Source of the DNA: Acidobacteriota bacterium
GTDB lineage: Bacteria > Acidobacteriota > UBA6911 > RPQK01 > JADFOI01
Direction of reading: 5' to 3'
Assembly (NCBI GenBank): GCA_036338555.1
Contig: JAYZBY010000136.1
Coordinates: 1 to 36,288 of the forward strand
DNA: 36,288 bases
Within the stretch, counting starts at the first letter, position 1. Every line of letters starts with the position of its first letter. Positions 801-33,810 of this stretch are shown here, piece by piece. Both the position numbers and the translations under genes were made by a program. Below the pieces are notes generated by a model. That model searched no databases and had not been told where the DNA came from. It saw nothing but the letters and a program-made list of their open reading frames with translations.

Positions 801-858
801 GCGGGGAGTATTCCAGGGTGCCGCGATTCCGGAGGCCGCTCATAGAGCGGCCGCTACA
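801..858 (-). repeat. REP-like element, class B long form (GTAGCGGCCGCTC-loop-GAGCGGCC + CCGGAATCG tail)
   Basis: The minus strand reads tgtagcggccgctctatgagcggcctccggaatcgcggcaccctgg... It contains a NotI site (GCGGCCGC). The same element recurs at 14261, 21328, 28468 and 30411. Confidence 0.8.
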
Positions 859-5973: not shown

Positions 5974-7743
5974 ATGAAAGTAACGAGAACGACGACGACC
6001 AGTATGACAGTCCTCCTATTTTTGTTGGGTCTGAGCGGTTGTGCCTCCAGTGTGCCCGAGGGACTGGCACCCGACATGGTCTTGCACAATGGCAAGATCG
6101 TCACCGTGGATGAGAGTTTTTCCATTGCTCAGGCCGTGGCCATTCAAGATGGGCGTCTGATTGCCGTCGGGTCCGACAGCGATGTCCTGGCCCTGGTCGG
6201 CGCAGGGACCGAGGTGATGGATCTGGAAGGGAAGACCGTTTTACCCGGCCTTCATGATTCCCATCTTCACCTGGCCTGGCCGGTGGGTGAGGCTCCCAAT
6301 CCGGCCATCCCCGAACTGGCGGCGGCTCGATCGATTGGAGAGATTGTCGAGATCGTGGGTCGCGAGGCGGAGGCCGCCGCGCCGGGCGAACTGGTGTGGA
6401 TTCCCTTCGGACCGGCCATCGTGGACATGATTGAAGAGAAACGCTGGCCCAACAAGTTCGATCTGGACCCGGTCTCCCCTGACAACCCGGTCGTGATCAC
6501 CTTTGCGGCGGACGGCGTGTATGTCGCCAACAGCATGGCCTTGGAGAAGGCCAACATCAACCGCCGGACTCCCCAGCCGCACCTCAGCGGCTTGATGGGA
6601 GAGTTTGAAATCGATGGCCGGACCGGCCAGTTGACCGGAGTCATGAAAGGACGTTCCGCGGCCCACCTGCTGCGGGAGCCGCTGGAAGTCTGGTCGACCG
6701 ACATCCTGGAGGAGAATATCGCCCGCGCCATTGAGGCTGACATCGTCCCCTACGGCATTACCAGCCTGGCCGACCCTGCCATGGCCAGCAACAATCAACC
6801 CATTCAACACGCCTTTCAGCGGGTGGCCCGGAGCAAGATCGGTGAGTGGGTTCGCCTTAATCTGATGATCCGGATTCCGGTGCGGGCCCTTTCGGCCGAG
6901 GAGTGCATTGACCTGATTCAAGGGCTTCTTTTTGAGCCGCCTCTCAAGAACGACTTCTTCCGGGTGGGAACTTTCAAGCTGAGTATGGATAAGGGATACC
7001 CCGGGGCCAAGCCCTATATCGTGCCCGAGGAGAAAGGGAAAAAGGTTCTCATCGAGGGACACAAGGCGGGATGGCAGCTCTACGTGCACATCACCACGCC
7101 GGAGACCTTTGACTATGTGAGTGAAGCTCTGGAGGAAGCCTACCGGCTCTACCCTCGAGAAGACGCCCGCCATATCTTCACCCATATCCACTACCCGACC
7201 CAGGCCAATGTCGACACCATGAAGCGGTTGGGGATCATTGCCGATTTACAGGTGACCCGCATCTACCATACGGCCGATGACGCCGAGGAGACGATCCATC
7301 AGGACCCCGATCGGCCTCACCTGGGCGACAAGCCCGTGGCTACCTACCGGGATGCCGGGATTTCGGTGATCCTGAGCAGCGACCAGGCGCCGGTGGGTCC
7401 CCTCTTCACCGTCTGGGAAGCGGTCAACCGGGTGCGCAAGTCCGGCAAGGTCTATCAGCCCGAAGAAAGCCTGACGCTGGAGCAGGCCATCCGGGCCATC
7501 ACCATCACTCCGGCCTGGGCTTTCTTTGAAGATGACATCAAGGGGTCTCTTGAGGTAGGGAAATGGGCTGATCTGGTAGTGCTGGGCCAGGATATTCTGA
7601 CGGTTGATCCGATGAAGATCAAAGACATTCCGGTACTCAGGACCATGACGGGTGGCAGGTTCGTCTATGTCAATCCCAACCAGGATCCCGATCAGGAGGT
7701 GAAGTACTATCGATATCCCCAGCGGACTTCTTACCTGGATTGA
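5974..7743 (+). CDS. amidohydrolase family lipoprotein, group II
   Basis: ATG has GGGGGGA 6 nt upstream. Lipobox is LLGLSGC. Other motifs are PDMVLHNGKIVTVDESFSIAQAVAIQDGRLIAVGS, HxH (DSHLH), and the C-terminal GSLEVGKWADLVVLGQDILTV. It ends in TGA (7741..7743). Confidence 0.85.
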   Translation: MKVTRTTTTSMTVLLFLLGLSGCASSVPEGLAPDMVLHNGKIVTVDESFSIAQAVAIQDGRLIAVGSDSDVLALVGAGTEVMDLEGKTVLPGLHDSHLHLAWPVGEAPNPAIPELAAARSIGEIVEIVGREAEAAAPGELVWIPFGPAIVDMIEEKRWPNKFDLDPVSPDNPVVITFAADGVYVANSMALEKANINRRTPQPHLSGLMGEFEIDGRTGQLTGVMKGRSAAHLLREPLEVWSTDILEENIARAIEADIVPYGITSLADPAMASNNQPIQHAFQRVARSKIGEWVRLNLMIRIPVRALSAEECIDLIQGLLFEPPLKNDFFRVGTFKLSMDKGYPGAKPYIVPEEKGKKVLIEGHKAGWQLYVHITTPETFDYVSEALEEAYRLYPREDARHIFTHIHYPTQANVDTMKRLGIIADLQVTRIYHTADDAEETIHQDPDRPHLGDKPVATYRDAGISVILSSDQAPVGPLFTVWEAVNRVRKSGKVYQPEESLTLEQAIRAITITPAWAFFEDDIKGSLEVGKWADLVVLGQDILTVDPMKIKDIPVLRTMTGGRFVYVNPNQDPDQEVKYYRYPQRTSYLD

Positions 7744-12110: not shown

Positions 12111-13538
12111 TCACTCAAACACGTGTTTGAATTTCTTGTACATCTCTTCCCTCAGTTCGGGGCTGGGCCCGCTTATCCTGGGGAAGTCCTTGAGCCTCTC
12201 GTAAGGCTTGCAGGCTTCGATCACGGCCCGGGAACTGAAGCCTCCTGAGCCGTCCCCGGGTCCAATGGGATCATCGCTGGTTCGCATGCTGCGGGTGATG
12301 AGCTGGATCGAGGTTTCCGGATTGGAGCGAGTGCAAAGAGCCCAGATTACCTGGAAGGTGTCGGTCGGGTCGATGTCGTCGTCTACCACGATGGTGTAGC
12401 GATTGGCGTAAAGTCCCGCCTGGCATTGAGAGGCGATCAGGCCGGCTTGCCGGGCGTGTCCGGTGAACTTCTGTTCGATGGAGACGATGTTGAACATCCT
12501 GGAGCCGCCTGCCGGGTGGCACCACACTCCCTGGACACCGGGAACCCCGGCCCCCTCCAGCGCATCCCAGATGCGGGCTGAGCGGGTGAAGGCTCGATAG
12601 ACGGAATGTTCCGCGGGCGGGCGCACCGGCGGTGCCCCCAGGATGATGGGATCATTTCGATGCAGGATGCTGCGCAGGTGGATGATGGGATCGGCCTGGG
12701 GGGGACTGGCGTAGTAGCCGGTCCACTCACCGAAGGGACCTTCGAATTTCTTGGAGCCGGGAATGATTTCTCCTTCCAGAACGATCTCGCTCTGGGCCGG
12801 AATGGGAAGTCCGCTGAAGGGGCCCTCGATCACTTCAATCGGTTCGCCCTGCAGGGCACCCACGAAATCCATTTCGCAGTAGCCGTAGGGGAATTCCATG
12901 GAGGCAACCGTCAAAAAGGAAGGGTGGTGACCGACCGAAATGGCTACCTTGACCGATTCGTTTCGCTCCAGCGCTTTTCGGATATGCATGGCTCCGTGGT
13001 GAGCCAGGGCGATGTGCACGCCTACGGATTGCTCGTCGTGAATCATCACCCGGTAGGTCCCGGTGTTGACCCAGCCCTCGTCGGGGTCGCGGGTGATCAC
13101 CATATCGCCGGTTCCGATGTAGCGGCCCCCGTCGTGTTCATGCCACTTGGGTGTTGGGAACTTCAGAACATTGACGTCCTTGCCTTGCTGGACGTTTTCC
13201 AGAACGGGGCCGTCCTTCACCACTACCGGGGGAATGGGCTTGAAGCTGCCCGCCATTTCTCGCCACTTCTTGACGAAGTCCAGATTGGAGAGATCGGTGG
13301 GCATGCCGAAGGTGAGAGCCACCTTGCGCACAGAGGCCAGGGTATTGGTGATGACCCGATAGCCTTCCGGGTAGCCCTTGATCTTGTCGAATAGCAGCGA
13401 CGGCATGGGATCCATCTGGCTGGCCAGCTCGGTGAGGGCACCCATCTCGTGCACCCAGTCGGCGCCTTCAACCCGACGCACCTCACCCATCTTCTCGGCT
13501 TCTTCGATCCACAGGCGCAGATCAGTACAATTGGGCAT
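12111..13538 (-). CDS. UbiD-family (prFMN-dependent) decarboxylase
   Basis: 475 aa with GGGAG 6 nt upstream of the ATG. PKWHEHDGGRYIGTGDMVITRDPDEGWVNTGTYRVMIHD and the overall length match UbiD-family carboxy-lyases. It ends in TGA (12111..12113) and starts 37 nt after the upstream CMD gene. Confidence 0.85.
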   Translation of the reverse strand: MPNCTDLRLWIEEAEKMGEVRRVEGADWVHEMGALTELASQMDPMPSLLFDKIKGYPEGYRVITNTLASVRKVALTFGMPTDLSNLDFVKKWREMAGSFKPIPPVVVKDGPVLENVQQGKDVNVLKFPTPKWHEHDGGRYIGTGDMVITRDPDEGWVNTGTYRVMIHDEQSVGVHIALAHHGAMHIRKALERNESVKVAISVGHHPSFLTVASMEFPYGYCEMDFVGALQGEPIEVIEGPFSGLPIPAQSEIVLEGEIIPGSKKFEGPFGEWTGYYASPPQADPIIHLRSILHRNDPIILGAPPVRPPAEHSVYRAFTRSARIWDALEGAGVPGVQGVWCHPAGGSRMFNIVSIEQKFTGHARQAGLIASQCQAGLYANRYTIVVDDDIDPTDTFQVIWALCTRSNPETSIQLITRSMRTSDDPIGPGDGSGGFSSRAVIEACKPYERLKDFPRISGPSPELREEMYKKFKHVFE

Positions 13539-13575: not shown

Positions 13576-14136
13576 TTAGAAGTACTCCTCGAGCACTTCA
13601 GGGGGAACATCATCTTCGATTTTGAGGGCACTGGCAAAGGCATTGGTCAGGGCGGAGAGCATTACCACCGAGAGGGCTTCAACGATTTCAGCATCCTCCA
13701 GTCCCTGGGCTCTGAGTGCCTGGATGTCTTCAGGAGAAATGGTGGTCGTGTCGGCCGCCACCTTGCGGCCGAATCGAATGACGGCCAGTTCCCTGGGGTC
13801 CCCTCCCGGAACCTCCTTTCCTTCCCTCAGGGCTATGACGGTTTCCTTTTCCATGTTGAATTCCTTCACGAGGAATCGGGAATGCCCGCCCACTCAGTAA
13901 AAGCAGTTGCGCACGTCGGAGGCGGCAACGAAAAGGAGCTCCTTGAACTGGCGGCTGAATTTGCCTTTGCTCATCACCAGGTTGTAGCCGGAGGAAGATG
14001 CCCTTAAGGCCGGGGCGAAGTGAGCCATCATGGCGTAAAGGGGTGAAGGGCGTCCATGCTCCTTCACGAAGGCGTCGATCAGGCGCTGGCCCTCCGGCTC
14101 CAGGTTCTCCAGGTCGGGAAAGGGAATTAAAGCCAT
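13576..14136 (-). CDS. carboxymuconolactone decarboxylase/AhpD-family protein with predicted selenocysteine (in-frame TGA at 13894..13896)
   Basis: The track ORFs 13894..14136 and 13576..13893 are contiguous and in one frame, separated only by a TGA. Joined they give 186 aa: ...ELLFVAASDVRNCFY-U-VGGHSRFLVKEF... The TGA falls at the second Cys of the family motif C-x-x-C-x-x-x-H. A SECIS-like hairpin lies 16 nt downstream. AAGGAC SD precedes the ATG at 14136. Confidence 0.75.
13859..13877 (-). other. SECIS-like hairpin downstream of the recoded TGA
   Basis: The mRNA reads GAUUCCU-CGUGA-AGGAAUU, a 7-bp stem including one G.U pair with a 5-nt apical loop containing GU. The stem begins 16 nt after the UGA. 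Confidence 0.55.
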
Positions 14137-14160
14137 CGTTTGTCCTTATAGTAACGGTCG

Positions 14161-14192
14161 CTCTAGGAGCGGCCTCCGAAAAGATCGTGTCG
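14161..14192 (+). repeat. REP-like element, class B (degenerate head GTAACGGTCGC)
   Basis: gtaacggtcgctctaggagcggcctccgaaaa is a direct-orientation partner of 14261..14292. Confidence 0.7.
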
Positions 14193-14260: not shown

Positions 14261-14292
14261 GTAGAGGCCGCTCTGTGAGCGGCCTCCGGAAA
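14261..14292 (+). repeat. REP-like element, class B long form
   Basis: gtagaggccgctctgtgagcggcctccggaaa. Confidence 0.8.
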
Positions 14293-21327: not shown

Positions 21328-21371
21328 TGTAGCGGCCGCTCTAGGAGCGGCCCTCCGGAATGCGGTCGCAC
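21328..21371 (+). repeat. REP-like element, class B long form
   Basis: tgtagcggccgctctaggagcggccctccggaatgcggtcgcac lies just after the stop of 20247..21317. Confidence 0.8.
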
Positions 21372-28467: not shown

Positions 28468-28522
28468 TGTAGCGGCCGCTCTGTGAGCGGCCTGATCGGC
28501 GCCTGAGGAACCTCCCACACTC
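28468..28522 (+). repeat. REP-like element, class B long form with CCTCCCACACTC tail
   Basis: tgtagcggccgctctgtgagcggcctgatcggcgcctgaggaacctcccacactc. Compare 30411..30472 and 36065..36108. Confidence 0.85.
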
Positions 28523-30234: not shown

Positions 30235-30253
30235 GGCCGCTCCTGGAGCGGCC
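30235..30253. repeat. REP-like hairpin, class B core without GTAG head
   Basis: ggccgctc-ctg-gagcggcc lies 18 nt after the stop of 28577..30217. Confidence 0.7.
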
Positions 30254-30410: not shown

Positions 30411-30472
30411 TGTAGCGGCCGCTCTGCGAGCGGCCCTTCGGAATCGGCGCACTGAGGTGCCTCCCATGCTAC
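30411..30472 (+). repeat. REP-like element, class B long form
   Basis: tgtagcggccgctctgcgagcggcccttcggaatcggcgcactgaggtgcctcccatgctac. Confidence 0.85.
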
Positions 30473-33180: not shown

Positions 33181-33810
33181 TTACTTTTTCTCCCCGCCAC
33201 CAACCTGGTCTTGCCCGATCTTCCGGTATTCCTCGTTAAGAGCGATTCCCAGGGCGTCGGCAAGCCGATTGAGATAATTCATTATGCCGATAATGGCAGT
33301 TGCATCCACGATGTCCTCGTCTGAAAAGCCATGACCTCGGAGTTGTCCCAGGTCTTCCGCCGTGCAGGTATGGCCCTGCAGATTGACCTTATCGGCGAAA
33401 TCCAGCAGCGCCCGCGTGGCTTCATCCATAGGCGCCTGTCGATAATCCTTCTTGACGGCTTCGGCCAGTTCCCGGTCTCCCAGCTCGGCACGGAGAAACT
33501 CCCCGTGAGCTTCGACTCAGTAGTGACATTGATTGCCGGCTGAGACCACCACGGCAATCATCTCCTTCTGGGAGCGGGTCAATCCCGAAGGACCGTACAT
33601 CAGGGTGTTGAAGAGGGGAACCCAGCCGCGAGTGACATCGGGGCGAATGCTGGTGGATTTCAAGATATTGGGGATCCAGCCGCGTTGTTTCTGGAAGCCC
33701 TCGTAAAGACTTTTGACGTAGCCGGTGGCCTCTTCCGGATGGACGGTGTCAATCCAGGCAATGTCTTCGATCTGAGCGGTGCTGTCACGCTTGGGATCTT
33801 CTTTAGTCAT
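33181..33810 (-). CDS. CMD/AhpD-family peroxidase-related protein with predicted selenocysteine (in-frame TGA at 33517..33519)
   Basis: Track ORF 33517..33810 ends ...AVVVSAGNQCHY-TGA. The same frame continues without a stop through VEAHGEFLRAELGDRELAEAVKKDYRQAP into track ORF 33181..33429 (MDEATRALLDFADKV...). Joined they give 209 aa with C-H-Y-U-V-E-A-H in place of C-x-x-C-x-x-x-H. A SECIS-like hairpin lies 9 nt downstream. Confidence 0.75.
33489..33507 (-). other. SECIS-like hairpin downstream of the recoded TGA
   Basis: The mRNA reads CACGGGGA-GUU-UCUCCGUG, a continuous 8-bp stem with one G.U pair and a GUU apical loop. The stem begins 9 nt after the UGA. Confidence 0.5.

Follow-up and report, generated by a model that had tools for sequence, protein, structure and literature searches.

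Since 2005 it has been known that AhpD-like proteins can carry selenocysteine (Sec) in a CxxU motif, and these selenoproteins form one of the most abundant families of their kind in the sea. Of the new selenoprotein families in the Sargasso Sea survey, the AhpD-like protein (COG2128, CxxU) had the most members, 27 sequences (PMC1088965); in the Global Ocean Sampling (GOS) selenoproteome 'AhpD-like 1' came fourth, its 299 Sec forms standing beside 902 homologues with Cys (PMC2398784); and a 2026 review has the entry 'AhpD-like protein, TIGR01926, CxxU' (PMC13188914). Gene callers routinely miss these selenoproteins, and a further case would not surprise a specialist. Here we treat positions 1 to 36,288 (forward strand) of contig JAYZBY010000136.1 from the Acidobacteriota bacterium assembly GCA_036338555.1, this whole 36,288-nt stretch being termed the window. 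On its minus strand an in-frame TGA lies in what we read as a single gene for a Sec-containing AhpD-like oxidoreductase, split wrongly by the calling of open reading frames (ORFs); we give this reading a probability of about 0.92. An initial annotation, made from the sequence alone, had proposed such a gene and noted that AhpD-like selenoproteins are known from metagenomic surveys, which the three sources just cited bear out.

The catalytic residues of characterised AhpD proteins form a proton relay, Glu118/Cys130/His132/Cys133/His137 in Mycobacterium tuberculosis AhpD (MtAhpD) and Glu36/Cys48/Tyr50/Cys51/His55 in Pseudomonas aeruginosa PA0269 (PMC3141380), and it is Cys133 of MtAhpD that attacks AhpC directly (PMC6626918). 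The published model of the bacterial Sec insertion sequence (SECIS) has an apical loop of 3–9 nt, an upper stem of 4–16 bp, a UGA-to-loop distance of 16–37 nt and a minimum free energy (MFE) of at most −7.5 kcal/mol; of loop positions 1 and 2 at least one is G, with G or U as the usual next base (PMC13188914, Fig. 2 legend).

The gene in the window starts at an ATG (14136..14134), preceded 6 nt upstream by a Shine-Dalgarno-like AAGGA, and runs for 79 further codons to ...SDVRNCFY, where the TGA (13896..13894) is reached. The 105 codons that follow read VGGHSRFLVKEF...LEEYF and stay in the same frame to a TAA (13578..13576). Because the minus strand reads through without a shift around the TGA, the two listed ORFs, 13894..14136 (80 aa) and 13576..13893 (105 aa), are contiguous in a single frame; they abut, with the TGA as their sole interruption. 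The joined protein is 186 aa long and has the motif C78-F-Y-U81-V-G-G-H85. Its features are as follows.

13576..14136, minus strand: predicted AhpD-like selenoprotein gene (CMD family, TIGR01926-type, 186 aa), start ATG 14134..14136, stop TAA 13576..13578
14143..14147, minus strand: Shine-Dalgarno-like AAGGA, read from the sequence
13894..13896, minus strand: in-frame UGA, codon 81, predicted selenocysteine, aligning with the second Cys of CxxC (MtAhpD Cys133 equivalent)
13882..13905, minus strand: active-site motif C78-F-Y80-U81-V-G-G-H85, which together with Glu66 (13939..13941) has the proton-relay spacing E-x11-C-x-[H/Y]-C-x3-H
13859..13877, minus strand: predicted bacterial SECIS hairpin GAUUCCU-CGUGA-AGGAAUU, with a 7-bp stem that includes one G-U pair and a 5-nt loop containing GU

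For homology searches the TGA was replaced by Cys in the joined protein. The Pfam carboxymuconolactone decarboxylase (CMD) model PF02627 then matches at 9.6e-11 (42 bits, cutoff 23), and the NCBIfam model TIGR01926, 'peroxidase-related enzyme', matches residues 4–173 of 186 at a borderline 82.0 bits (cutoff 81.8). The closest solved structures are AhpD-like (PDB 2oyo, 6k40 and 2prr, aligned over residues 4–172), and the CFYC of the joined protein sits opposite CLYC/CVYC of 2oyo and 6k40. A search of a large protein collection gave 30 full-length homologues (179–187 aa, 39–49% identity, 95–100% coverage); when these CMD-family proteins are aligned, all 30 have Cys in the TGA column, residue 81, and Glu66, Cys78, Tyr80, Cys81 and His85 are invariant among them. 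Contiguity of the two ORFs in one frame, the 186-aa length, the C-F-Y-U-V-G-G-H motif, membership of the CMD/AhpD family and the equation of the TGA with the second Cys of CxxC...H had all been put forward in the initial annotation, and the direct reading, the translation, the two family models and the homologue and PDB alignments agree with it on each.

How does this protein stand to the described systems? With the AhpD-like selenoprotein family (COG2128/TIGR01926) it shares the domain family, the Sec position in CxxU, a marine metagenomic origin, an excess of Cys homologues over Sec forms, and a SECIS right after the UGA with G in a small apical loop. It differs in being divergent, with a borderline TIGR01926 score (82.0 bits, against 156.7 for a second AhpD-like gene of the window described below), in being part of a distinct subfamily whose signature is CFYU[V/M/A]GGHSRFLV, and in its clade-wide linkage to a UbiD gene, a linkage that we did not find described. 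Since the AhpD-like selenoprotein features that we tested are present and the score of the hidden Markov model (HMM) is borderline, the 186-aa protein is, as judged from its sequence, a new and divergent member of this known family. The model NF041238, AhpD_rel_CFYUT (seleno)protein ('hypothetical protein 1' of the Sargasso Sea), has C-F-Y-U and AhpD relatedness in common with it but is 357 residues long; our protein reaches 37 bits where the cutoff is 175, and aligns in a C-terminal stretch only, so that membership is excluded. The relay spacing of MtAhpD and PA0269 is the same as that of Glu66/Cys78/Tyr80/Sec81/His85, although overall similarity to these proteins is low, the predicted Sec stands where they have the attacking Cys (Cys133 equivalent), and no AhpC-type partner is encoded near the gene.

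The TGA is conserved well beyond the window. The identical 80-aa N-terminal fragment occurs on nine contigs from independent metagenome assemblies; in all six contigs that were fetched the codon is TGA, and the five that reach far enough have the same downstream sequence. The sole fragment among the matches of the homologue search, P0031 (which starts MGGHSRFL), is from a distant relative at ∼55% DNA identity, and its contig reads C-F-Y-TGA-M-G-G-H. Scanning with the degenerate pattern TGY NNN TAY TGA NNN GGN GGN CAY WSN MGN TWY YT matched 6 species-representative genomes (labelled Acidobacteria/Acidobacteriota in three cases, Acidimicrobiaceae in one and 'uncultured bacterium' in two) and 16 metagenome contigs, that is, 22 further loci. 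All 22 are homologous, with the TGA at the same codon followed by an open frame of ∼105 codons (18 full length, 4 cut by the contig end). Amino-acid identity to the window protein, taken ungapped over full-length Sec forms, ranges from 98% down to 34%. Comparison of relatives shows an excess of third-position substitutions and many synonymous changes 3′ of the TGA, as in the 5′ half. Neither the homologue search nor that for the 22 loci found homologues ending at the TGA position, all relatives being full length; such homologues had been named at the outset as a finding that would speak against the gene, as had assembly error, which the identical TGA on independent assemblies rules out. In a rough neighbour-joining tree without support values most Sec forms fall in one clade, with L025, L027 and L009 among Cys forms.

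The proposed hairpin, GAUUCCU-CGUGA-AGGAAUU, lies where the initial annotation had placed it (13859..13877), and the same hairpin is kept across all Sec forms. It begins 16 nt after the TGA, and its loop begins 23 nt after it. The geometry is that of the SECIS model and of the bacterial consensus (bSECISearch; the SelB-binding hairpin of the E. coli fdhF type): a hairpin inside the coding sequence, shortly past the UGA, with a 7-bp stem and a 5-nt loop, CGUGA, that has G at position 2 followed by U. It departs from the consensus in being weaker and in that the window's clade has no conserved lower stem. Each of the 22 distinct Sec-form sequences folds a hairpin at the same register, with the lowest pairs shifted in L009 and L012 and one mismatch in L019. 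Their loops (CGUGA, GUU, GGUCA, GUC, CGUGC) are of 3–5 nt, their stems of 6–8 bp and their UGA-to-loop distances of 23–24 nt, and the RNAalifold consensus of the Sec forms is a 6-bp hairpin core.

In a single sequence the fold is statistically unremarkable (z = −2.0 alone, −0.1 to −0.9 in context), so that support for the hairpin is comparative. It rests on synonymous-site constraint, because covariation alone would not establish the structure. At the hairpin 21/22 Glu codons are GAA, whereas in the remainder of these genes 124/392 are (p = 1.5e-9); for Arg, CGA or AGA accounts for 21/23 codons at the hairpin and for 45/282 in the remainder (p = 1e-13). These Fisher p-values overstate independence, since the sequences compared are phylogenetically related. 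The Phe codon is TTC in 36/36 at the hairpin and 159/220 elsewhere. All 22 Sec forms have K or Q at residue 91, which supplies the 3′ arm, as against 7/30 Cys forms. Seven Cys-form genes with available DNA have CGC, CGG, CGT or AGG for Arg (one has Leu) and mostly GAG for Glu. This strong synonymous-site constraint indicates that the hairpin is under selection at the RNA level. The MFE alternative, a long interrupted stem with a GGAA loop, needs GAA-UUC-A and is lost in variants with Tyr (UAC) or Gln (CAG); it was dropped in favour of the conserved hairpin because these variants do not preserve its stem.

Several observations, including the relatedness of the sequences just mentioned, weigh against a SECIS and against Sec itself. 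The isolated hairpin has −5.1 kcal/mol and does not reach the model threshold of −7.5; the relatives' hairpins alone have −3.8 to −7.3, and enforcing the window hairpin in UGA plus 60 nt gives −13.8 kcal/mol. It is no longer the MFE structure once 42–71 nt are folded. Covariation is thin, consisting of one change from A-U to G-C (in L001 and L023) that is probably a single event, and a control in which the register was slid by one scores about the same. The hairpin is partly dictated by the conserved peptide F-L-V-K-E, and a similar one is possible in two or three of the seven Cys-form controls, where it is limited to genes encoding K/Q-E. Rfam gave no SECIS match, either at gathering thresholds over the whole window or in a permissive scan of 13780..13960, which returned only chance matches of snoRNA type (E > 0.6). 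As for the decoding machinery, selA, selB and selD are absent from the window and the fetched loci (Pfam scans of 20 window genes included), and ARAGORN detects no tRNA-Sec in the window or in 22 related loci. It does call a 93-nt 'tRNA-Arg(ccg)' in L010 (2572..2664) and L029 (2780..2872), though not in the window; this call falls within the coding sequence of UbiD, at its 3′ end, and is probably spurious.

A second AhpD-like gene came to light in a systematic scan of the window for in-frame TGAs.

33181..33810, minus strand: second, paralogous AhpD-like selenoprotein gene (predicted; 209 aa, C-H-Y-U-V-E-A-H), in-frame TGA 33517..33519
33482..33511, minus strand: predicted SECIS of the second AhpD-like gene, with a 7-bp upper stem, GUU loop and 5-bp lower stem, −13.8 kcal/mol

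This gene reads ...NQ-C-H-Y-TGA-V-E-A-H..., and ORF calling splits its 209 aa into ORFs of 97 and 82 aa. The joined protein matches TIGR01926 at 156.7 bits (cutoff 81.8) and Pfam CMD at 1e-14, aligns with PDB 2pfx at 4e-33 with CHYC opposite CFYC, and is 31% identical to the 186-aa protein over 114 residues. Its hairpin agrees with the SECIS model in all four respects, with a 7-bp stem and a GUU loop 17 nt after the UGA, and has −13.8 kcal/mol over 30 nt (z = −2.5) and a 5-bp lower stem. The N-terminal fragment is found identically on 20 contigs from independent marine metagenomes, TARA samples among them. Two paralogues in which a TGA takes the place of the same catalytic Cys and has its own SECIS-like hairpin make it very likely that the organism decodes Sec, and Acidobacteria have been reported to have selenoproteins (PMC1794560).

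Other accounts of the TGA have to be set against this. Were it a pseudogene lesion, or a sequencing or assembly error for TGC/TGT, one base change would suffice; the same TGA is, however, found on independent assemblies from different samples and in 22 divergent loci of at least two phyla, purifying selection continues downstream of it, and the second paralogue shows the same feature on 20 independent contigs, so that we give this account next to no credence. The TGA could instead be a true stop, yielding either the 80-aa fragment alone or two assembling polypeptides with re-initiation at the GTG. A GTG or ATG does follow the TGA in the window and most relatives, and gene callers do split the gene. 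Yet Val or Met after the second Cys is also found in Cys forms (C-F-Y-C-M), so that the apparent start is merely a conserved residue. In L025 and L027 the TGA is followed by an Ala codon (GCT/GCG), the next in-frame start being 8 or 21 codons on, which means that re-initiation at the junction cannot be a general explanation. Direct reading of the sequence shows nothing Shine-Dalgarno-like ahead of the junction, the break would fall inside the catalytic helix and remove the attacking residue, each of the 30 Cys homologues is one chain of ∼187 aa, and the PDB homologues are single domains across the junction. The conserved TGA and the coding-type evolution downstream thus leave the pseudogene, assembly-error and split-gene accounts excluded or very unlikely.

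Two further accounts accept read-through. Natural recoding of Sec UGA codons to Cys by tRNA-Sec-like tRNAs has been reported, as have unusual tRNAs in some Acidobacteria. By this route, or by near-cognate suppression, UGA 81 might be read as Cys or another standard amino acid to give an ordinary CxxC product, and the lack of Sec machinery in the window and fetched loci would suit it. TGC or TGT would be simpler if Cys were the product, though, and Cys forms with TGC exist; the SelB-type hairpin is under synonymous constraint in all Sec forms, the family is well documented as Sec (PMC2398784), and selenoproteins are reported from Acidobacteria (PMC1794560). We hold such a product to be very improbable, about as much so as a true stop. 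A reassigned code in which UGA is a general sense codon (tables 4 or 25) would fit with the rarity of TGA stops (2/20 window genes), but TGA ends the amidohydrolase gene 5974..7743 and the UbiD gene 12111..13538, both at full domain length, and the only two in-frame TGAs in recognisable window genes are those at the CxxC position of the AhpD-like genes. Local recoding, as first proposed on the strength of ordinary TGA stops at 7741..7743 and 12111..12113, is supported, both stops being where they were said to be, and a reassigned code has hardly any probability left.

The Sec-containing AhpD-like gene is followed by a co-oriented gene.

12111..13538, minus strand: UbiD-family decarboxylase gene, 37 nt downstream of the AhpD-like gene

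In the window's clade (the U-V-G-G-H forms, 64–98% identical) UbiD follows wherever the downstream sequence is captured (L008, L010, L011, L013, L014, L015, L019, L021, L022, L026, L028 and L029); the closest genome match, L010, is an Acidobacteriota metagenome-assembled genome whose protein is 96% identical. UbiD identity in this clade is 82–99%, more conserved than the selenoprotein. The neighbour was not seen in the U-M/A-G-G-H Sec forms or in the sampled Cys forms, which have other neighbours, a CMD paralogue and enoyl-CoA hydratase. Because the UbiD neighbour is conserved in the clade and no minus-strand terminator-like site lies between the two genes, they likely form an operon. Around the Cys forms of L030, L031, L034 and L036 and in the P0010 record there is typically a second ORF of 171–208 aa upstream, a Pfam CMD match being obtained only for that of L031; an enoyl-CoA hydratase gene stands 3′ of the Cys form in L031 and L036.

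In the mechanism that we propose, the hairpin, starting 16 nt downstream with its CGUGA loop, would recruit SelB with Sec-tRNA(Sec) at UGA codon 81, and Sec would be inserted there in place of termination. By alignment, Sec81 would occupy the position of the attacking Cys (MtAhpD Cys133) within the relay Glu66/Cys78/Tyr80/Sec81/His85. By analogy with characterised AhpD it may attack an oxidised partner, whether a peroxiredoxin-type protein or a hydroperoxide, and Cys78 would then resolve it as a selenenylsulfide. It is probable that this gene shares a transcript with the UbiD-family decarboxylase gene downstream. A bolder and rather unlikely proposal is that in this marine Acidobacteriota clade the Sec AhpD-like protein serves the adjacent, prenyl-FMN-dependent UbiD as a dedicated redox partner, for example one that might hold the UbiD cofactor or active site in the proper redox state; if true, AhpD-like selenoproteins would have a function beyond peroxide defence.

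Two Cys forms that encode F-L-V-K-E, L032 and L036, are still able to form a SECIS-like hairpin in the register of the Sec forms, with −10.9 to −11.6 kcal/mol for a 32-nt segment. This hairpin may be what is left of an earlier Sec state, or else a pre-adaptation easing the switch from Cys to Sec. The sequence coding for F-L-V-K-E could, on the latter view, be a built-in proto-SECIS that makes Cys-to-Sec switching unusually easy in this subfamily, which if true could account for Sec forms scattered among Cys clades.

If the reading of a single gene is right, what many marine metagenome contigs show as a pair of 'hypothetical' ORFs, 80 and 105 aa long, is a single selenoenzyme, and the window has another gene of this kind. 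Mending such splits would better the selenoproteome counts for marine Acidobacteriota and flag the lineage as Sec-decoding. To a well-known family the gene adds a divergent subfamily and a conserved UbiD linkage; the understanding of Sec use is unchanged.

Some other features of the window were recorded. Between 1871 and 33263 there are ten large amidohydrolase paralogues (∼560–660 aa), nine of them with significant Amidohydro_3 matches, and hydrolases are strikingly concentrated in the window. It also encodes two pyrroloquinoline quinone (PQQ) beta-propeller proteins, a CN-hydrolase, a cupredoxin, a Dabb-domain protein and a 1163-aa outer-membrane barrel of CarboxypepD_reg/TonB type. The stop codons of 20 likely genes, a set picked by eye from the longest ORFs, are TAG in 12, TAA in 6 and TGA in 2, an unusual usage at ∼57% GC. 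A palindromic element, GGCCGCTC-NNN-GAGCGGCC, is present in seven copies against 0.02 expected.

834..852, 14156..14174, 14266..14284, 21334..21352, 28474..28492, 30235..30253 and 30417..30435: palindrome copies, all intergenic by the ORF list

Two of the copies, within a 38-nt direct repeat, lie in the leader/promoter region of the AhpD-like gene 13576..14136. The element looks like a REP-like (repetitive extragenic palindromic) sequence or a terminator/operator family.

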